This document shows positions 3,952 through 24,813 of a DNA stretch of 24,813 nt, piece after piece. Within the stretch, counting starts at the first letter, position 1. Every line of letters begins with the position of its first letter. The position numbers were made by a program, and so were the translations under genes. The stretch is from a virus (lineage: Duplodnaviria; Heunggongvirae; Uroviricota; Caudoviricetes). The stretch lies in the IMG/VR virus record IMGVR_UViG_2529292921_000026, one strand, 5' to 3'. The notes beneath the pieces were generated by a model. It made no database searches, had not been told where the DNA came from, and saw nothing but the letters and a program-made list of their open reading frames with translations.

Positions 3952-4298
3952 TTGTCAGCTCCTTTGCGAATCTGTTCCGCCCATTCTTCAAGGGATTTCT
4001 CCGCATATTCACCGGACAGGCCATCAATCGGGTACGGTTCATTAGCCAACTCTTCTTTCGCTGACAGAATCATGCGTGTAACGTCGAAAACTTCACGCAA
4101 AGACTTATTGATAAATCCGTGATTGAAAGCAGCAGCAAGACGGCTTGCGGTATAGTTAATACCCTCGTTGCGAGCCTCAGCACGTACTTCATCGAATTTA
4201 CGCACCAGATACTCAGCATTTGTTTCATTCACTTTCAGATCTCGCGGTACACATTTCCCGCGAAGAAACCCTTCCATTTCGAAAACATTCATGCGCAT
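3948..4298 (-). CDS. hypothetical phage protein (116 aa), possibly YfdS-like
   Basis: Clean ORF with ATG at 4298 and stop/start overlaps on both sides, consistent with translational coupling in the leftward operon. No motif recognised. Confidence 0.45.
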   Translation of the reverse strand: MRMNVFEMEGFLRGKCVPRDLKVNETNAEYLVRKFDEVRAEARNEGINYTASRLAAAFNHGFINKSLREVFDVTRMILSAKEELANEPYPIDGLSGEYAEKSLEEWAEQIRKGADK

Positions 4299-4825
4299 TT
4301 GCGTAACTCCGATAACTCGTTAAAACGTTCCATAAACATCCCATAGGCATGGCCTGGCGACAGTGGAATAACTTTGAACATCTCTGTTGCCGGGATACCT
4401 TCCAGTACAGGCCAGAAAGAGCCATCATCAAGCCCGAGATCGCGGCGTTCGGTTGCCAGCATAATGAGATCGGCATATTTCACTGGCGTGCTCATAACAG
4501 GAGGTAACCCGTATTTCTCACGGATTACGGCGTCTATTTTTTCTTCCATCTGTTTATAGTCAGGAAGAAGGCGTTTCAGTGGCGCGGGGATGTCCTGACA
4601 ATACGCTTCTGTTGCATCATGCATTAACGCTTCAAAAGCAAACTCCTCCGGAACCAGTTTGCTGCAAAGCACCGCATGTTGGGCGACGCTGTAGAAGTGT
4701 GAAAGATGCCCTGCAAAGCGACAGATATTTGAGAGGGAAACTGCGATATCGTTAATCACGATGTCGTCTTTATTTATCCTGTCATAATAAAAATGCTTCC
4801 CGGAAAAAGTTTTAATAAATGACAT
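4289..4825 (-). CDS. yfdR: HD-domain phosphohydrolase (5'-deoxynucleotidase YfdR-like)
   Basis: HD-superfamily motifs are visible (VAQHAVL ... LMHDATEAY). Using the ATG at 4825 with GGAG 6 nt upstream gives 178 aa, the length I recall for K-12 YfdR; the ORF track extends to a GTG at 4852. The gene symbol is assigned from memory only. Confidence 0.55.
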   Translation of the reverse strand: MSFIKTFSGKHFYYDRINKDDIVINDIAVSLSNICRFAGHLSHFYSVAQHAVLCSKLVPEEFAFEALMHDATEAYCQDIPAPLKRLLPDYKQMEEKIDAVIREKYGLPPVMSTPVKYADLIMLATERRDLGLDDGSFWPVLEGIPATEMFKVIPLSPGHAYGMFMERFNELSELRKCA

Positions 4826-4918
4826 TTTGTTCTCCACGTATATGCGCTGCACCGCGCTGAATTCTGGTAAAAGGAAGCCCTCACCATCCGGTGATTATTG
4901 AGTTAATTACGTTTCCAT

Positions 4919-4952: not shown

Positions 4953-5777
4953 TCAGGCGGTGAAAGTACCAATAAAGGTTTCGACTTTGCTGTCTTTGAA
5001 TTTCTCAACAAGCAGATCACGAAATTCGTTAGCCATTTCTTCCTGCACTGCTTCCAGCTGAATAATGCGCAGAACCAGTACAGGGCGATCACCAGTGATA
5101 ATGCTGAGTCGTAATTTAAATGGACGTTCTTTCAGGCCTTCAAACGGAACGCATTTAAATTCAAATGCCACTGGCATAATGTCTTTGGTCTTCGCTTCGA
5201 CAGACTCCATCAGGGAGCGTTTGCCGCTGAAGTCATTGTCTTCAAAATCAGCAGTCTGGTTCGCTTCAATTGTGATTTTACGGACTGCCGCAGCCGCTTT
5301 TGTTGCCTGAATGGCGTCACCATTAGCATCAAAGCCCACAAGGTAGTCGGCCCAGTCTTCAATCCATTCTGCCAGTGACTTCTGGGAGTTACGCTCGCCG
5401 TTAACAGACAACAGAGCAGAGAACGGTGCTGTCTTTTTCAGTTTGAGGGTGGCGGTGTTATCTGCGTGACCTGGTTCATCAATAGTACCCAGGTTAAGCA
5501 CACTGACGGCTCGCATATTATCGGCATCGATAAAGCAGCGGGTGCCTTCATCTGCAAGATCTTTAGAATAACGGGTAAAGTCATCGATGCTGGCAGTGGA
5601 AAGCGCACCACGGAAACGGAAGCGATTTAAATTAAATTTTTCCAGATCATGAATGCGGAAATTCTCAGGCAATGCCACAGCATCGGCACCAATCTTACTG
5701 ATAATTTCATTAACACCCTGAGCAGAAATAAGGGCATGGATTTGATTAATTGCGGTTGCGTCTAAGTTCTGAGACAT
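4953..5777 (-). CDS. yfdQ: DUF2303-family phage protein (YfdQ-like)
   Basis: 274-aa ORF with ATG at 5777 and GAGGA 6 nt upstream. The length and its position immediately upstream of the HD-domain gene match the yfdQ-yfdR arrangement of CPS-53 as I recall it. Confidence 0.5.
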
Positions 5778-6662: not shown

Positions 6663-7316
6663 TCAAAAATCCATTATTACTTGTTTGACAAGACCAACTA
6701 TTCTGCAGTTCTCACCGCATTCAATAGTTTTATAGTTAGGATTTAGTGGGACGAGATACCTGTTCGGCCAGTCCTCAACAAATTTTTTGAGTGTCGCTTC
6801 TTGCCCACCATTGATATGGGCAACAACGATTTTTCCGTTAATACACTCTGTATCAATAATATCTGGCTCTACGATAACGATAGAACCTTCTGGTATCGAT
6901 GGTGAGCCGAGGGGATTGGTCATTGAATCACCACGGACCCGTAGTGCAAATGCCATTTCTGATACAAGGGCGGTAGTATAAACCCACTCTTCAGCATCTT
7001 CTTTCCTGACACCAGGCTCCGTCATTGTCCATGAACCCGCCTGAACCCACGAGATTAGGGGGACTTTTTTAACTGCGAATATTTCAGGTTTTAGATTTAT
7101 CTTTGGTTCAGGCGAGCCTTTTCCGCTAACAAGCCACAGAGGATCGCATTTAAGTGCGTTGGCTAGGGCTTGAAGGTTGGCTCCATTTGGTTGGTAGTCG
7201 TCCTTTTCCCATCCAGTAACCGTGACACGGTTCACACCAGTCAAATCAGCCAGTGCTTGTTGTGTCAGGTTCAGTTCTTTTCGCCTTTGGCGAATACGAT
7301 CACTCATGTTCATCAT
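6663..7316 (-). CDS. CI/C2-like prophage repressor (N-terminal HTH-XRE, C-terminal S24 LexA-like peptidase)
   Basis: N-terminus RIRQRRKELNLTQQALADLTGVNRVTVTGWE is an XRE-type HTH. The C-terminal domain carries the S24 self-cleavage serine motif (RVRGDSMTNP) and a catalytic Lys region. Overall it resembles P22 C2 as I recall it, and it sits between the two operator regions. Confidence 0.8.
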   Translation of the reverse strand: MMNMSDRIRQRRKELNLTQQALADLTGVNRVTVTGWEKDDYQPNGANLQALANALKCDPLWLVSGKGSPEPKINLKPEIFAVKKVPLISWVQAGSWTMTEPGVRKEDAEEWVYTTALVSEMAFALRVRGDSMTNPLGSPSIPEGSIVIVEPDIIDTECINGKIVVAHINGGQEATLKKFVEDWPNRYLVPLNPNYKTIECGENCRIVGLVKQVIMDF

Positions 7317-7636: not shown

Positions 7637-8221
7637 GTGGGTAAAGAACCTGAATGGAAAGTTGATAAACAACCAGCATGGCTGGTGGCAGCAATACGAA
7701 GAACGATTGCTGATTTACCTCATGGCTATGAGGAAGCAGCAGAAATTCTTGGTTTGTATAAATCTGATGATATCACCCCAGCAAAAGATCAATTGCATAA
7801 CAGACTGCGTAGCGGTGGGGATCAAATTTTTCCACTTGAGTGGGCCATGGTTTTACAGGATGCCAGTGGTACCAGGCATGTAACGGATGCGATAGCGCGT
7901 CGTAGTAATGGGGTGTTTGTGCCGCTGGTGGACATTGATGACATTGACAATGGTGACATTAATCAGCGGCTGATGGAGTCAATAGAATGGATTGGCAAGC
8001 ATTCCCAGTACTTACGCAAGGCAACTGCTGATGGAGTTATTGACCAGGCTGAGCGTGAGCAAATCGAAGAGAACAGCTACCAAGTAATGGCGAAGTGGCA
8101 GGAGCATTTAACACTGTTATTTCGTGTTTTTTGTGCACCGGAAAAGAGTAACGCCCGCGAGTGTGCAGCTCCGGGCGTCGTGGCGTCGATTGCTTCTGGT
8201 TGTGGAGAAACTAACGCATGA
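7637..8221 (+). CDS. phage CII-like regulatory protein (CP76-type), putative
   Basis: GTG start at 7637 has GAGG 8 nt upstream and follows cro by 27 bp. The 194-aa product has a central helix region. Family assignment is from position and weak recall only. Confidence 0.4.
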   Translation: MGKEPEWKVDKQPAWLVAAIRRTIADLPHGYEEAAEILGLYKSDDITPAKDQLHNRLRSGGDQIFPLEWAMVLQDASGTRHVTDAIARRSNGVFVPLVDIDDIDNGDINQRLMESIEWIGKHSQYLRKATADGVIDQAEREQIEENSYQVMAKWQEHLTLLFRVFCAPEKSNARECAAPGVVASIASGCGETNA

Positions 8222-8366
8222 ACAGTTTAACGGCAAATAACCGTTTGTCGCAACAGCTGGTGGTCAGCGTCGCTGAACACCTGTTGTTACGGCATGAATG
8301 CAGATTACCAAATCACCTGGCTGTAAGTAACCACAGAGAACTTTACCTGACTGTGGGGGGCGAGTT

Positions 8367-8546
8367 GTGCAGGAACTTAACCGCTGGTTTCGTGACGGAA
8401 GAGGGCTTTATGTCCATGTTATTCGTTGGGAGCCAGAAACACAGCGCGTTATCTATCTTCGCAAAGACTACCCGCATGAGTGCTTTAGTCCTTTGTGGAA
8501 ATTCAGGCGTGATTTTGTTGAGTGTGAAGGACCACCAGCACATTGA
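8367..8546 (+). CDS. candidate small protein (59 aa) in the cII-rha gap
   Basis: Frame-3 ORF with GTG at 8367 preceded by a GGGGGG run and a 6-nt spacer. Translation MQELNRWFRDGRGLYVHVIRWEPETQRVIYLRKDYPHECFSPLWKFRRDFVECEGPPAH has protein-like composition. It is below the ORF-track cutoff and competes with a frame-1 ORF. Confidence 0.3.
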   Translation: MQELNRWFRDGRGLYVHVIRWEPETQRVIYLRKDYPHECFSPLWKFRRDFVECEGPPAH

Positions 8547-8631
8547 TTCTGCCATTCCGGGACGTTACACTGTTCAGGCACCTTATAAAGCGGGTGCCGG
8601 GATTGGCGTCCTGAAATTGATTACTGAGCAT

Positions 8632-8653
8632 AACCGCGCTCATGCGGTTTTTT
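8632..8653 (+). terminator. weak terminator-like hairpin plus T-run (tR-like)
   Basis: AACCGC(8632-8637)-GCTCAT-GCGGTT(8644-8649) followed by TTTT (8650-8653), within the 600-bp stretch between the CII-like and Rha-like genes. Confidence 0.3.
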
Positions 8654-8823
8654 CGTGTCATGAGCATTGCTACGCCCAAATTATGGTGGGGCGTACAGGG
8701 CCGACTTCGGTCGGGCCGGGTTCGGTAGTCTCCGGTAACGCCAACCCTGTACGTCTCACCACCTCTGTGATTGGCGTCCCATGTGGTGAGTTTTCTGAAA
8801 AACTGACTACCGGGGCTGTCACC

Positions 8824-9381
8824 ATGACTACTCTCCCAACCCTCTCTCAACCTGAAATTGCCATCGTTGATGGTCAGGCTGTTACATCTTCTTTGGCTGT
8901 TGCTGACTTCTTCTCTAAACGTCATGACGATGTTCTGAAAAAGATCCGCATTTTGGATTGTTCTCCAGAGTTTTGTGCCCGCAATTTTGCGGAGACATCA
9001 ATTTTGGTACACCAGCCCAACGGCGGTACTCGCAAACTTCCTTGCTACCACATCACCCGTGACGGCTTCGCGTTCCTGGCAATGGGCTTCACTGGCAAAC
9101 GTGCTGCCCAGTTCAAAGAGGCATACATCAATGCCTTTAACCAGATGGAGAAACAGCTTTCAAAGCCCTCTGTACCGAGCGACGTTGCACATAACGCCAG
9201 CGTTCTCTATTCCTACATTTCATCAATTCATCAGGTCTGGTTGCAGCAGCTTTATCCCATGCTGGAAAAAGCTGAATCACCGCTGGCTGTAAGTCTGTAT
9301 GACCGAATTAACGATGCGGCATTTCTTGCCCGTCTTATTCATTCGTCGCTGAACTCTTCAGAGGTAAGGGGGCGCAAATGA
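8824..9381 (+). CDS. Rha-family phage regulatory protein
   Basis: N-terminal IAIVDGQAVTSSLAVADFFSKRHDDVLKKIR matches the Rha-domain signature (V-T-S-L-x-IAE-x-FGKRHxxVLRxI). ATG at 8824 has GGGG 8 nt upstream. The ORF track's 387-aa version adds a 200-aa upstream extension that I consider unlikely. Confidence 0.6.
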   Translation: MTTLPTLSQPEIAIVDGQAVTSSLAVADFFSKRHDDVLKKIRILDCSPEFCARNFAETSILVHQPNGGTRKLPCYHITRDGFAFLAMGFTGKRAAQFKEAYINAFNQMEKQLSKPSVPSDVAHNASVLYSYISSIHQVWLQQLYPMLEKAESPLAVSLYDRINDAAFLARLIHSSLNSSEVRGRK

Positions 9382-11082: not shown

Positions 11083-13537
<2,455 letters not shown>

Positions 13538-14092
13538 TCTTTTGCCCGTCCATATTCAACGGCTTCTTTGAGGAGTTCATTTTCCATCGTTTTCTTGCCG
13601 AGCAGGCGCTGGAGTTCTTTAATCTGCTTCATGGCGGCAGCAAGTTCAGAGGCAGGAACAACCTGTTCTCCGGCGGCCACAGCAGTAAGACTTCCTTCCT
13701 GGTATTGCTTACGCCAGAGAAATAACTGGCTGGCTGCTACACCATGTTGCCGGGCAACGAGGGAGACCGTCATCCCCGGTTCAAAGCTCTGCTGAACAAT
13801 TGCGATCTTTTCCTGTGTGGTACGCCGTCTACGTTTCTCCGGCCCTAAGACATCAATCATCTGTTCTCCAATGACTAGTCTAAAAACTAGTATTAAGACT
13901 ATCACTTAAATAAGTGATACTGGTTGTCTCGAGATTCAGGGGGCCAGTCTAGGTGTGAAAAGCAAGCGTGCGAACGGAAGTAGATGGCAATTCATTGCAT
14001 TACTTCAGAAAAACTTTTTCAGGAAACGAGCTAAGGGCGTCAACCAACGCCCTGTAGCATAAGCTCAGGCACCGGATGCCGTTTTACAGGCT

Positions 14093-14824: not shown

Positions 14825-16315
14825 GATGAGAGATCTCCGTTGATTTGGATTGACTTCACATCATTAATCACCGCGGTAAAACTTTACGGCATCCGGCATT
14901 GAGCAATGCTACAACTCTCTGATTAAGAGTGATTGAAACGGAACAAACCATCCCGGAACGAAAAGATAATCCTACACGCAGGGTAAAAACACTCAAGAAC
15001 AGCGAATGGATTTAAAAACGACATGGACAACGAGAAAAGTCAGAAGGGAAAAGGATCCACAGAACATTCGAACAAAACACCAGAAACGCAACCAGAACGC
15101 TTCCTGGTAATGCAAATCAACAACAACCCCAAAACCTACAGCTTAATCACACAACTCAATCACGGATGCGAATGACACGTTTAAAACCTGTTTACAGATA
15201 ACGCCGTTACACGATCATCCCCATCAGAATCGATTTTCCCTTCCGGAAAGCGTTATGTTTCACTACGCACCATAAAAACGATTAACCATCGATAACGTAA
15301 ACTTCATCTGAATCAAAACTCCAAAACCGTTCATCACACTTTCGCAATGCAAGAAGAAACCTCATGACGAAAGCAATAACCTTACACGGAAAAGAAAAAC
15401 GTCAGGAATCGTTAATGCCTCAATCTGATTGTTATCAAAACATCCAGAAAGTCGTTTAACAGAATCGTCGTAAGTATATCGAAAAGAACGTCAGATTACT
15501 TCAGGAAAGTTCGGGTTGATTTAGCGTAAAGATACTTTTCTCATGCCAACGTCGAAACTCGAAATCTCAGGAAAGGTTAAACGTAACATCAGTAAAATTG
15601 AATAGCAGATTGATTGCTGAAGCAGAAAGGTTTTACAGCAGCATTAAACTGATTTAGTTAACGTAAAGATTTACTAAACTGGATGTGTATAGCAATGCTT
15701 AACGAAAACACTCGTAGAAGTGTTTATGAAAATACGTGTATAACACTTACTGAAATGCTTAGTTAAATACGTGTATATAGTATCATACCGACATTAGCAA
15801 CATTCTCAGACACTCATGCAGACTGAATGTTGATTACCCGTTTTCACATCAGGCATGGTTCTTTACTGACCAAAAAACAAACTGGTTTACTCTTGAATTA
15901 TTTTCTCTACCTCAGAAAACATGGTCTCAGGAATCTGCTATGGTTTCATAGTTTCTGTTGTTTTTTCATAAAAGTTATAAGTCATTGTCATAATCATACG
16001 ATAATCACTTTATGTTAGTTTTTACTGTCACACGCTACTGACTTTTTCAGTCATTGCCAGAAAGGGGCTCTTTTTACTTCCATTTCACCACTCAACAAAT
16101 GCAAAACTTGTCCAGTAAAGCGGACCACCTCTTGCTCACAAGCAACGAATCATCTCCAGGAACAGCCCTCAAACATTGCAGAAACAAAAACAACAAAACC
16201 CTCATTATCACTGATGTTCGGAAAATTTCCCGGAACAAAAAAACGAAAACAAAATGAGACGCATTATCATTAATGTAGTCAAAAAGACGTTATGGTGGCT
16301 TTCAGTTAAATGGTA
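14825..16315. other. 1.5-kb AT-rich, A-biased region without convincing ORFs, containing short direct repeats
   Basis: No ORF of 60 aa or more on either strand across 14825-15826, and only two low-complexity ORFs after that. Direct repeats TGATTTAG..CGTAAAGAT (about 15517 and 15650) and AAATACGTGTATA (15730 and 15766), and a hairpin AAACACT-CGTAGA-AGTGTTT (15705-15724). Confidence 0.4.
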
Positions 16316-19545: not shown

Positions 19546-20223
19546 ATGAATACCAGAGCTCTTTTTCCCCTGCTGTTCACTGTGGCATCATTCTCCGCCT
19601 CCGCCGGCAACTGGGCTGTCAAAAACGGCTGGTGTCAGACCATGACGGAAGATGGTCAGGCGCTGGTAATGCTGAAAAATGGCACGACTGGTATTACCGG
19701 CCTGATGCAGGGATGCCCGAATGGCGTACAGACGCTCCTGGGCAGCCGTATCAGTATTAACGGTAACCTGATCCCCACATCACAAATGTGTAATCAGCAG
19801 ACGGGATTCAGGGCTGTTGAGGTGGAAATCGGACAGGCGCCGGAAATGGTCAAAAAAGCCGTTCACTCCATAGCAGAGCGTGATGTGTCCGTTTTACAGG
19901 CATTTGGTGTACGAATGGAATTCACCCGCGGTGATATGCTGAAGGTCTGTCCGAAATTTGTCACATCACTTGCCGGTTTTTCCCCGAAACAGACGACCAC
20001 TATTAATAAAGATTCCGTCCTGCAGGCTGCCCGGCAGGCATACGCCCGGGAATATGACGAGGAAACAACAGAAACCGCTGATTTTGGCTCTTACGAAGTA
20101 AAAGGCAATAAGGTTGAGTTTGAAGTATTCAATCCTGAAGACCGTGCGTACGACAAAGTGACCGTCACGGTTGGTGCTGACGGTAATGCCACCGGCGCCA
20201 GCGTTGAATTTATCGGAAAATAG
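19546..20223 (+). CDS. secreted protein with signal peptide, unknown function
   Basis: ATG at 19546 has AGAGG 6 nt upstream. N-terminus [23 protein letters not shown] is a Sec signal peptide. The ORF track's upstream extension lacks an RBS. Confidence 0.5.
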
Positions 20224-20228
20224 CCGGT

Positions 20229-20462
20229 ATGTCGGACTGCCACCCTGTTTTATTGCCCGAAGGCCCTTTCTCACGCGAACAGGCGGTTGCCGTCACAACA
20301 GCTTACCGCAATGTGCTTATTGAAGATGACCAGGGAACGCATTTCCGGCTGGTTATCCGCAATGCCGAAGGGCAGCTACGCTGGCGGTGCTGGAATTTTG
20401 AACCTGATGCCGGAAAACAGCTAAATTCGTATCTCGCCAGTGAGGGAATTCTCAGGCAATAA
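20229..20462 (+). CDS. DUF905-family small protein (YkfF/YpjJ-like)
   Basis: 77-aa ORF ([57 protein letters not shown]...) in the expected position of this family in CP4-type islands. Confidence 0.6.
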
Positions 20463-20485
20463 ACGTCTTCATTTCATCCATCAGG

Positions 20486-20518
20486 CCGCGTCTTCTCCGG
20501 GAGACGTGGCTTTTTCAT
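20486..20518 (+). terminator. rho-independent terminator after the DUF905 gene
   Basis: 10-bp stem (with G-U pairs) CCGCGTCTTC / GGGAGACGTGG around a tetraloop, followed by CTTTTTCATTT. Confidence 0.5.
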
Positions 20519-20560
20519 TTATTACACCAGTAAATCTTAACCACCGATAAGGAGCAAATT

Positions 20561-21379
20561 ATGCGACTAGCCAGTCGTTTTGGTTATGCGAACCAGATAC
20601 GCCGTGACCGTCCGCTGACACACGAAGAACTGATGCACTATGTGCCGGGGATTTTCGGGGAAGATAAACACACGTCCCGAAGCCAGAACTATACGTACAT
20701 CCCCACCATCACCGTACTGGAAAGCCTGCAGAGGGAAGGCTTTCAGCCATTCTTCGCCTGCCAGACCCGTGTGCGCGACCCGGGCCGCCGGGGATACACA
20801 AAACACATGCTGCGTCTGCGGCGGGCCGGAGAGATAAACGGAGAACATGTCCCTGAAATTATTCTGCTCAACTCTCATGACGGTACCTCCAGCTACCAGA
20901 TGCTGCCGGGTTACTTCAGGTTCGTCTGCCAGAACGGATGCGTCTGTGGTCAGTCTCTGGGGGAAGTGCGTGTTCCGCACCGGGGAAATGTGGTGGACAG
21001 AGTCATTGAAGGGGCTTACGAGGTGGTGGGCGTGTTTGACCGGATTGAGGAAAAGCGTGATGCCATGCAGTCGCTGATTCTGCCGCCACCGGCACGCCAG
21101 GCGCTGGCACAGGCGGCACTGACTTACCGTTATGGTGACGAACATCAGCCCGTCACCACCGCCGACATTCTGACGCCACGACGCCGGGAGGATTACGGTA
21201 AGGACCTGTGGAGTGCTTATCAGACCATTCAGGAGAATATGCTGAAAGGCGGAATTTCAGGTCGCAGCGCTAAAGGAAAACGTATCCATACCCGTGCCAT
21301 TCACAGCATTGACACTGACATTAAGCTCAACCGCGCATTGTGGGTGATGGCGGAAACCCTGCTGGAGAGCCTGCGCTGA
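20561..21379 (+). CDS. DUF932-family protein (YfjQ/YafZ-like)
   Basis: 272-aa ORF with AAGGAG RBS upstream. Sequence and position match the DUF932 paralogs of CP4-44/CP4-57/CP4-6 as I recall them. Confidence 0.65.
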   Translation: MRLASRFGYANQIRRDRPLTHEELMHYVPGIFGEDKHTSRSQNYTYIPTITVLESLQREGFQPFFACQTRVRDPGRRGYTKHMLRLRRAGEINGEHVPEIILLNSHDGTSSYQMLPGYFRFVCQNGCVCGQSLGEVRVPHRGNVVDRVIEGAYEVVGVFDRIEEKRDAMQSLILPPPARQALAQAALTYRYGDEHQPVTTADILTPRRREDYGKDLWSAYQTIQENMLKGGISGRSAKGKRIHTRAIHSIDTDIKLNRALWVMAETLLESLR

Positions 21380-21433
21380 TTCAGCCATTACCCTGAAAAC
21401 CACGCATTTATTTGTCCTTTAAGGAGTCATTTC

Positions 21434-21919
21434 ATGAAAACCATTTCACATAATTCCACCACATCTTCTGTTTCCGTAACCGCTGCATCAGGGAATGACC
21501 AGCCTCAGCTGGTTGCCACCATAGTCCCTGATGAACAGCGCATCAGCTTCTGGCCGCAGCATTTTGGCCTCATTCCACAGTGGGTGACCCTGGAGCCCCG
21601 TATCTTCGGCTGGATGGACCGTCTTTGCGAAGACTACTGCGGTGGTATCTAGAATCTGTACACACTGAACAACGGTGGCGCATTTATAGCGCCCGAACCG
21701 GATGACGATGATGGCGAAACATGGGTACTGTTCAATGCCATGAACGGTAACCGCGCTGAAATGAGCCCGGAAGCCGCCGGCATTGCTGCCTGTCTGATGA
21801 CGTACAGTCATCACGCCTGTCGTACGGAGTATTATGCCATGACGGTCCATTATTACCGGCTGCGGGATTACGCCCTGCAGCATCCGGAATGCAGCGCCAT
21901 TATGCGCATCATCGACTGA
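21434..21919 (+). pseudogene. antirestriction protein (KlcA/ArdB-like, YfjX/YafX/YeeS family) interrupted by an in-frame TAG
   Basis: A single 161-codon frame runs from ATG 21434 to TGA 21917-21919, with an amber codon at 21650-21652 (codon 73). Both halves read as antirestriction-family sequence (...FGWMDRLCEDYCGGI * NLYTLNNGGAFIAPEPDDDDGETWVLFNAMNG...). Confidence 0.6.
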
Positions 21920-21934
21920 ATGGAGGCAGGGACA

Positions 21935-22411
21935 ATGCAGCAGCTTTCCTTTCTGCCCGGAGAAATGACGCCCGGCGAGCGCAGTCTCATTCTGCGGGCT
22001 CTGAAAACCCTGGACCGCCATCTTCATGAACCCGGTGTGGCCTTCACCTCCACCCGTGCGGCACGGGAATGGCTGATTCTGAACATGGCGGGACTGGAGC
22101 GTGAAGAGTTCCGGGTGCTGTATCTGAACAACCAGAATCAGTTGATTGCCGGTGAAACCCTCTTCACCGGCACCATCAACCGCACGGAAGTCCATCCCCG
22201 TGAAGTGATTAAACGCGCCCTGTATCACAATGCCGCTGCTGTGGTGCTGGCACACAATCACCCGTCCGGTGAAGTCACACCCAGCAAGGCAGACCGCCTT
22301 ATCACGGAACGTCTGGTACAGGCACTGGGCCTGGTGGATATCCGGGTGCCGGACCATCTGATAGTCGGTGGCAGCCAGGTTTTCTCCTTTGCCGAACATG
22401 GTCTGCTTTAA
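21935..22411 (+). CDS. RadC-like JAB/MPN-domain protein (YeeS/YfjY/YkfG family)
   Basis: JAB metalloprotease motif HNHPSGEVTPSKAD. ATG at 21935 has GGAGG 9 nt upstream. The translation from MQQLSFLPGEMTPGER... matches this family. Confidence 0.75.
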   Translation: MQQLSFLPGEMTPGERSLILRALKTLDRHLHEPGVAFTSTRAAREWLILNMAGLEREEFRVLYLNNQNQLIAGETLFTGTINRTEVHPREVIKRALYHNAAAVVLAHNHPSGEVTPSKADRLITERLVQALGLVDIRVPDHLIVGGSQVFSFAEHGLL

Positions 22412-22473
22412 CCCGTCACAACCACATCACACCTGTTTTCACTTTTATCTTCTGTCTTCAGAGGTATCCCACT

Positions 22474-22695
22474 ATGAAAATCATCACCCGTGGCGAAGCC
22501 ATGCGTATTCACCGTCAGCATCCGGCATCCCGTCTTTTTCCGTTCTGTACCGGCAAATACCGCTGGCACGGCAGTGCTGAAGCGTATACCGGTCGTGAAG
22601 TGCAGGATATTCCCGGTGTGCTGGCCGTGTTTGCAGAACGCCGTAAGGACAGTTTTGGTCCGTATGTCCGGCTGATGAGCGTCACCCTGAACTGA
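22474..22695 (+). CDS. DUF987-family protein (YeeT/YkfH-like)
   Basis: 73-aa ORF MKIITRGEAMRIHRQHPASRLFPFCTGKYRWHGSAEAYTGREVQDIPGVLAVF... is near-identical to YeeT as I recall it. Confidence 0.7.
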   Translation: MKIITRGEAMRIHRQHPASRLFPFCTGKYRWHGSAEAYTGREVQDIPGVLAVFAERRKDSFGPYVRLMSVTLN

Positions 22696-22857
22696 TGTTC
22701 CGTCACCCGGAAAACGAGTACGACTGGCTGAGCTCAGACGCCGCTGTGGATGAGGTCCTGCTCATCAACGAATACACCTTTACCGAAGCCGGTCTGCGCG
22801 CCGGCTGACCCGTCATCGTTAAACTATCATTCACCGATTTTCTGTGAGGATTTTATC

Positions 22858-23226
22858 GTGTCAGACACACTTTCCGGGACAACGCATCCCGATGACAATG
22901 ACGACCATCCCTGGTGGGGACTACCCTGCACAGTGACGCCCTGTTTCGGCGCCCGTCTGGTGCAGGAGGGTAACCGGTTGCATTACCTTGCCGACCGTGC
23001 CGGTATCAGAGGCCGGTTCAGCGATGCAGATGCGTACCACCTGGACCAGGCCTTTCCGCTGCTGATGAAACAACTGGAACTCATGCTCACCAGCGGTGAA
23101 CTGAATCCCCGCCATCAGCATACCGTCACGCTGTATGCAAAAGGTCTGACCTGCAAAGCTGACACTCTCGGTAGCGGTGGTTACGTTTATCTGGCTGTTT
23201 ATCCGACGCCCGAAACGAAAAAGTAA
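22858..23226 (+). CDS. cbeA: type IV antitoxin CbeA (YeeU family)
   Basis: GTG at 22858 has GAGGA 7 nt upstream and gives 122 aa ([52 protein letters not shown]...), matching YeeU. It lies immediately upstream of the toxin gene. Confidence 0.75.
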
Positions 23227-23315
23227 ACCACCGGAATAACCTTCTGCTCCGGCCTGGTGCTTTCACCACGCCACTTTTCCATTTTTCATCTCTGCATATC
23301 AGGAAAACCTTCAGT

Positions 23316-23693
23316 ATGAAAACATTACCCGATACACACGTACGGGAGGCATCGAGCTGCCCGTCTCCCGTCACCATCTGGCAGACTCTGCTCTCCCGAC
23401 TACTGGGCCAGCATTACGGCCTTACACTGAATGACACACCGTTCGCCGATGAACGTGTGATTGAGCAGCATATTGAAGCTGGCATTTCACTGTGCGATGC
23501 AGTGAACTTTCTTGTTGAAAAATACGCACTGGTGCGTACCGACCAGCCGGAATTCAGTGCCTGTACCCGCTCTCAGTTAATAAACAGCATCGATATCCTC
23601 CGGGCTCGCCGGGCGACTGGCCTGATGACCCGCGACAATTACCGAACGGTAAATAACATTACCCTGGGTAAGTATCAGGAGGCGAAACGATGA
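23316..23693 (+). CDS. cbtA: type IV toxin CbtA (YeeV family; cytoskeleton-targeting)
   Basis: 125-aa ORF (MKTLP...[54 protein letters not shown]...) is closest to YeeV among the paralogs I can recall. Confidence 0.8.
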
Positions 23694-24483: not shown

Positions 24484-24813
24484 ATGTCTGAAATCACAGT
24501 CTCCCGTCCGGAAGTGGTCAACGAGAATACGGACGTTATCTGCTCCACCTCAGTCAGGTCCAGGTCACTGGAATATGATAATTTTCCGGAAATCAGCGAA
24601 GCGAACATTCTGAGCACATTTGAACAACTGCACCAGAACAAAGATGAAGTGTTTGAACGGGGAGTGATCAACGTCTTCAAAGGGCTGAGCTGGGATTACA
24701 AAACCAACTCACCCTGTAAATTTGGCAGTAAAATTATCGTCAACAATCTGGTGAGATGGGACCAGTGGGGATTTCATCTTATCAGTGGAATGCAGGCAGA
24801 TCAGCCTGGCTGA
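24484..24813 (+). CDS. hypothetical protein (109 aa)
   Basis: ATG at 24484 with AAAGGAATATCG upstream. The frame's stop codon coincides with the last three bases of the window. No motif recognised. Confidence 0.4.
   Translation: MSEITVSRPEVVNENTDVICSTSVRSRSLEYDNFPEISEANILSTFEQLHQNKDEVFERGVINVFKGLSWDYKTNSPCKFGSKIIVNNLVRWDQWGFHLISGMQADQPG

Follow-up and report, generated by a model that had tools for sequence, protein, structure and literature searches.

The window, that is, the whole stretch of 24,813 nt that was analysed here, is identical to the Escherichia coli DEC1B draft contig AIEW01000065.1 (assembly GCA_000249075.2) at 13,380 of the 13,380 positions compared in their overlap, with window position 21651 corresponding to position 75258 of the contig. 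A prophage early region occupies the window from position 1 to approximately 11,000 (to 11,100) and is followed by two insertion sequences and a genomic island that carries an antirestriction gene with one internal stop codon. The features on which the analysis builds are the following:

999 to 1574, Rv2179c-like 3'-5' exonuclease
4289 to 4852, YfbR-like gene, weak match
4953 to 5777, DUF2303 gene
6663 to 7316, minus strand, S24/HTH CI-like repressor
8218 to 9381, Rha/Ash-domain protein
11320 to 13121, IS21-family element with open reading frames of 340 and 260 aa, matching the IS100 istA/istB annotation in RefSeq relatives
13172 to 13905, IS2 remnant, directly beside the IS21-family element
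20561 to 21379, plus strand, intact DUF932 gene (272 aa), upstream of ardB with a gap of 54 nt
21421 to 21426, plus strand, Shine-Dalgarno sequence AAGGAG, 7 nt before the ATG at 21434, read directly from the sequence
21434 to 21919, plus strand, antirestriction gene of the ardB/klcA family (YfjX/YafX type), 161 codons including one amber codon, a pseudogene in the IMG/VR record
21434 to 21652, plus strand, residual N-terminal open reading frame of 72 aa, deposited as EHU05804.1 'hypothetical protein ECDEC1B_4894'
21648 to 21653, plus strand, XbaI site TCTAGA made by the G-to-A mutation, the sole XbaI site in the 24.8-kb window
21650 to 21652, plus strand, premature TAG at codon 73, with G changed to A at 21651 and the ancestral TGG (Trp73) thereby to amber
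21740 to 21919, plus strand, residual C-terminal open reading frame of 59 aa, beginning at Met103, the first in-frame start past the TAG
21935 to 22411, plus strand, intact RadC-like JAB gene (158 aa with the RefSeq start), beginning 15 nt past the ardB stop
24484 to 24813, plus strand, DUF4942 gene, of which 109 aa remain owing to a +1 insertion of A at 24803 as compared with the intact 190-aa gene

The gene order of the island reads YfjJ-like, hypothetical, GTPase, WYL/HTH, hypothetical, DUF905, DUF932, ArdB and RadC-like JAB, continuing with DUF987, CbeA/CbtA, DUF5983, DUF957 and DUF4942. From DUF905 to DUF4942 this is the order of a module of the CP4-57/CP4-6 type, as found with Pfam and RefSeq genomes and at 10 further loci. 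Judged from sequence and gene order, the ardB copy thus sits in a CP4-57/CP4-6-like island remnant adjoining cadC, which comes after the island in DEC1B and is likewise its neighbour in strain 2015C-3163. In K-12, yafX and yfjX have the same arrangement of genes downstream, which includes a RadC-like gene as well as a toxin-antitoxin pair of the CbtA type. The RadC/JAB gene at 21935-22411 is of the YeeS type (K-12 CP4-44); YeeS, which the original prediction had proposed for alignment as a paralog of the antirestriction gene, is not a paralog, its type being that of the next gene downstream. For the CbeA (YeeU-type) antitoxin gene at 22750-23226, the mechanically called open reading frame begins at an upstream ATG and comprises 158 aa, and the RefSeq protein of relatives 122 aa (369 nt); the gene is identical and the length difference is a matter of start-codon ambiguity only. 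On the minus strand, a 303-aa open reading frame (21488-22399) overlaps the ardB and RadC-like genes in antisense orientation; it matches no Pfam family and most likely exists as a mechanical open reading frame only.

From position 13188 on, the window is 99.93% identical to the island of strain 361. This edge of identity falls inside the IS2 remnant, which adjoins the IS21-family element, so that insertion sequences have reshaped the left edge of the island. No complete E. coli genome in the collection searched covers the prophage early region and the island together, the best single place covering 53% of the window. At the other end, the frameshift in the DUF4942 gene yields pieces of 109 and 77 aa, with the remainder continuing in the fetched locus L003 (13391-13624); the intact 190-aa gene is present in strains 361 and 2015C-3163, while an exact look-up of the 109-aa product finds DEC1B only. 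The window itself ends exactly on the premature stop of the frameshifted DUF4942 gene.

Over 12 kb of island, DEC1B and strain 361 differ at eight positions, five of which are substitutions. A further related assembly, GCA_000249235.2, was located through a 193-aa neighbour, the DUF932 neighbour being far too widespread to target relatives; it is comparable over 6.1 kb, up to where its contig ends inside the DUF932 gene and hence ahead of ardB. The eight differences are:

15320, substitution (A to T), apparently intergenic, in DEC1B only and in neither GCA_000249235.2 nor strain 361
15960, homopolymer of six T in DEC1B versus seven T, apparently intergenic, in DEC1B only and in neither GCA_000249235.2 nor strain 361
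16236, homopolymer length versus strain 361, common to DEC1B and GCA_000249235.2
19819, substitution versus strain 361, common to DEC1B and GCA_000249235.2
21077, substitution in the DUF932 gene versus strain 361, outside the GCA_000249235.2 contig
21079, substitution in the DUF932 gene versus strain 361, outside the GCA_000249235.2 contig
21651, substitution creating the amber codon versus strain 361, outside the GCA_000249235.2 contig
24803, +1 insertion of A versus strain 361, outside the GCA_000249235.2 contig

Since the changes at 16236 and 19819 are common to DEC1B and GCA_000249235.2, they are real variants of both, while those at 15960 and 15320 could be real mutations of the strain or errors of the draft assembly.

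Translation of 21434-21919 gives 161 codons followed by the natural stop TGA (21917-21919), all of them sense codons apart from one internal TAG, and frameshifts are absent. Position and codon number of the TAG (21650-21652, codon 73 of 161) had been predicted exactly, and the accompanying statement that the frame is unshifted and the 88 downstream codons are still antirestriction-like was borne out, with no difference from an intact allele besides 21651. Sequence and context alike assign the gene to the ardB/klcA family, whose complete single-domain proteins have about 134-161 aa; its frame is interrupted, so that the largest products are of 72 and 59 aa, and both halves have already been called as separate small genes in AIEW01000065.1. 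No more than about 7 residues of PF03230 fall within the 72-aa open reading frame, whose product has no Pfam match on record, and upstream of the 59-aa open reading frame (21740) no Shine-Dalgarno sequence is evident. The XbaI site that arises together with the stop contains the tetranucleotide CTAG, which is strongly depleted in E. coli as a rule and occurs 11 times in the window against approximately 97 times expected from base composition.

With codon 73 set to Trp, the protein matches the Pfam family PF03230 'Antirestrict' with an E-value of 2.1e-35 and 121.2 bits (cut-off 25) over residues 66-161, covering profile positions 1-92 of 92. The repaired protein equally aligns with the experimentally characterised members of the family, with ArdB of E. 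coli CFT073 (PDB 2WJ9) at an E-value of 2e-97 and 140 of 157 residues identical (89%) and with KlcA (PDB 2KMG) at an E-value of 2.1e-20, a similarity that indicates a close sequence relationship to a member of known activity. As compared to 2WJ9, the N-terminal 24 residues of the window copy are more divergent and include a 4-residue insertion, whereas only 5 differences follow after residue 24; the TAG stands where residue 93 of the 2WJ9 chain is Trp. The CFT073 protein is likewise island-borne (PAI-II, ORF14), and its antirestriction activity has been shown in vivo against Type IA-ID systems (PMC2836571). KlcA of the IncP-1b plasmid pBP136 (2KMG) shares Pfam family and fold with the window ArdB and differs in being plasmid-borne, distant in sequence and, at 142 aa, devoid of the N-terminal extension. 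In K-12, YafX (CP4-6) and YfjX (CP4-57) are ArdB homologues from cryptic-prophage-like islands that are active in vivo (PMC2836571) and, unlike the window copy, intact with 152 aa.

For ArdB of CFT073 and the K-12 proteins YafX and YfjX, the relief of Type I restriction in vivo ranges from 10- to 9000-fold (PMC2836571, Table 2). Together with KlcA they counteract, in vivo, restriction by each of the four Type I families, by tens- to thousands-fold, while EcoKI is not inhibited by these antirestriction proteins in vitro (Serfiotis-Mitsa et al., PMC2836571). ArdB/KlcA proteins adopt a single-domain alpha/beta fold with two beta-sheets flanking three C-terminal helices (PMC2836571). A residue-by-residue count of the alignment places Trp73 of the window at W54 of KlcA (KlcA136), a Trp that is also kept in 2WJ9. 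In KlcA, W54 is one of the largely conserved hydrophobic residues, stacks on Y39 and lies within a conserved surface patch of E35, Y49, G51, A52 and W54, one of only three well-conserved patches (PMC2836571).

If the base is real, translation would stop at codon 72. A stop at codon 73 deletes 89 of the 161 residues of the single-domain fold, which by the KlcA alignment comprise everything from roughly strand B on, the three-helix bundle included. With this much of the fold removed, the window copy is almost certainly inactive and would no longer inhibit Type I restriction; folding or activity of either the 72-aa or the 59-aa fragment is unlikely. Effects on neighbouring genes can also be envisaged. 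The TAG lies 267 nt ahead of the natural stop, and the RadC-like JAB gene starts 15 nt past the latter with GGAGG in between. A scan of 20100-23400 found no promoter- or terminator-like sites on the plus strand from the DUF932 gene to the RadC-like gene, a result compatible with their co-transcription though no proof of it. With the RadC-like gene this close downstream and neither promoter nor terminator between, the premature stop might possibly lower the expression of this and other downstream genes by polarity, which we purely infer.

Which codon preceded the stop can be read from the relatives. The intact allele WP_000849570.1 (161 aa), recorded on at least 1000 contigs and among the 22 matches listed at 99.8% from 5426 complete E. 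coli genomes, is identical to the window gene at 485 of 486 nt, the sole difference being at 21651, where the allele has G and the window A. Its loci in strains 2015C-3163 and 361 have the same neighbours as the window from DUF905 to DUF4942, but differ from it in the TGG at codon 73 and in the intact 190-aa DUF4942 gene. Codon 73 is TGG in all 13 of the other homologous copies fetched that align across it (94-99.8% identical), four fetched loci with TAG being all one and the same DEC1B contig, and the gene downstream of the same DUF932 neighbour is uninterrupted with 161 aa at 10 of 10 loci. The ancestral codon is consequently TGG (Trp) rather than TAT or CAG, the examples named beforehand. 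The disabling change is unaccompanied by any other divergence (1 of 486 nt), as characterizes a young pseudogene with a unitary lesion, and because there is no other change in the 486 nt the event must be very recent.

The TAG allele itself is exceedingly rare. Among the 5426 complete E. coli genomes it does not occur, with a best identity of 99.8% and no match of 100%; exact-pattern scans, one of them with a degenerate position, found no copy in 185,579 representative genomes (one per species), and an exact-pattern scan of JGI metagenome contigs found none either. The 72-aa product with a genuine stop is found by exact-sequence look-up in the DEC1B record only. Two further contigs that also match this product (L004 and L005) were rejected as instances of a shared stop, as they end one base past codon 72; partial fragments of other lengths in the protein cluster (64, 67, 77, 79, 86 aa and others) are at least as common as the 72-aa fragment, so that there is no enrichment at the codon-72 position and the coincidence carries no signal. 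Equally, a look-up of the 59-aa open reading frame for other genomes with the same split returned DEC1B only, the remaining matches being contig ends or different lesions. Homologues that naturally end at the TAG, which would have spoken for a short gene with an independent gene downstream, were thus not found among these searches, the stop being present in one assembly only.

The different lesions come from further E. coli assemblies. In locus L007 (2701-3180) the same gene is frameshifted and split into 94 and 59 aa, and in locus L008 (2285-3180) a 239-aa upstream open reading frame abuts a 59-aa remnant in a fusion. By comparison of these sequences, individual ArdB paralogs decay repeatedly through independent lesions.

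We consider it probable, at roughly 0.7, that the one-base G-to-A nonsense mutation is real and that it represents an ordinary, very young pseudogene in a decaying island. A single G:C-to-A:T transition would have turned Trp73 (TGG) into an amber codon (TAG) in one copy of a multi-copy ArdB/KlcA gene, and the mutation would fit a general decay of the island, with IS100 in an IS2 remnant at the left edge and the frameshifted DUF4942 gene at the right. The original prediction had offered a recent nonsense mutation as one reading and amber suppression or read-through as another; the former is supported by the 485 of 486 identical nucleotides, with only the stop-creating base differing, while the latter finds no support, given a stop private to one assembly and a window without a tRNA gene. 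No spontaneous change is more frequent in E. coli than the G:C-to-A:T transition, and approximately 3.5% of all possible single-base changes in the ardB gene create a stop (computed). There are 16 G:C-to-A:T positions in the gene that can create a stop, ten of them in its five Trp codons, with 21651 being one of the 16. With five substitutions between the island and its nearest relative, the chance under neutrality that one is a nonsense change is approximately 16%, which is not improbable. The main competitor, a sequencing error having likewise been named in the original prediction, is a miscalled base or wrong consensus in the draft DEC1B assembly, with a true genome that reads TGG and encodes an intact, functional ArdB. 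Of all sources searched, one draft assembly alone has the TAG allele, and the gene family is multi-copy, with a median of 3 places per genome and a maximum of 13 in complete E. coli genomes, so that a wrong consensus base might arise in a draft assembly. Furthermore, GCA_000249235.2 breaks its contig in this repeat region, and oddities seen in DEC1B only lie nearby, such as the homopolymer length at 15960 and the +1 insertion at 24803 that frameshifts the DUF4942 gene. However, consensus errors do not, in our judgement, typically take the form of a clean substitution outside a homopolymer, and no known paralog carries A at the codon-73 position that could have been mixed in; together with the frequency of the transition and of nonsense changes among so few differences, these observations make an error an unlikely, though still appreciable, explanation.

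Readings in which the allele is real and non-neutral, either silenced under selection or conditionally expressed as an antirestriction function through a natural amber suppressor, are very improbable as a whole. In the latter case a natural suppressor tRNA or leaky read-through would allow decoding of the amber codon, so that full-length protein would still be produced, perhaps in smaller or regulated amounts. The first base after the stop is A, and the context TAG-A favours suppression, as known from classical supE studies; this A belongs, however, to the conserved Asn74 codon, and is therefore inherited and not evolved. Equally, the undamaged 88 downstream codons, which at first sight suggest that the complete protein is made, are explained by the youth of the mutation, the 486 nt showing 0 other differences. 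Contrary to what programmed read-through would lead one to expect, no relative shares the in-frame stop (0 of 5426 genomes, TGG in 13 of 13 fetched copies), no tRNA gene lies within the 24.8-kb window, and classical amber suppressors, which insert Gln, Tyr, Ser, Leu or Lys but not Trp, would not restore the family-conserved residue, so that decoding of the amber codon appears extremely improbable. Equally improbable is the idea that selection favoured losing this ArdB copy, for example because chromosomal expression weakens the Type I restriction defence of the cell itself. Such a cost is conceivable with ArdB homologues from E. coli islands that, when expressed, act in vivo against each of the four Type I families (PMC2836571), and other disrupted copies exist, as in the frameshifted L007 and the fused L008. 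On the other hand, the allele occurs once and without recurrence, intact copies are the overwhelming norm, several paralogs are usual per E. coli genome such that one knock-out would leave activity, and the unrelated neighbour DUF4942 is broken as well, pointing to neutral decay or error; we give selection a minimal chance.

Taken as a phenomenon, the present case is an ordinary one, being either a pseudogene with a single lesion or an erroneous base in a public record, and its importance is small. A real mutation would illustrate neatly how gene decay begins in a cryptic island, with one transition and no other damage. The main practical value is an annotation note: the 72-aa and 59-aa 'hypothetical' open reading frames of DEC1B are halves of one ArdB gene, for which the pseudogene annotation is fitting. 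The new XbaI site could, if the mutation is real, alter the pulsed-field pattern on which XbaI-based typing relies, and it equally offers a cheap restriction-digest test of the base call at 21651.
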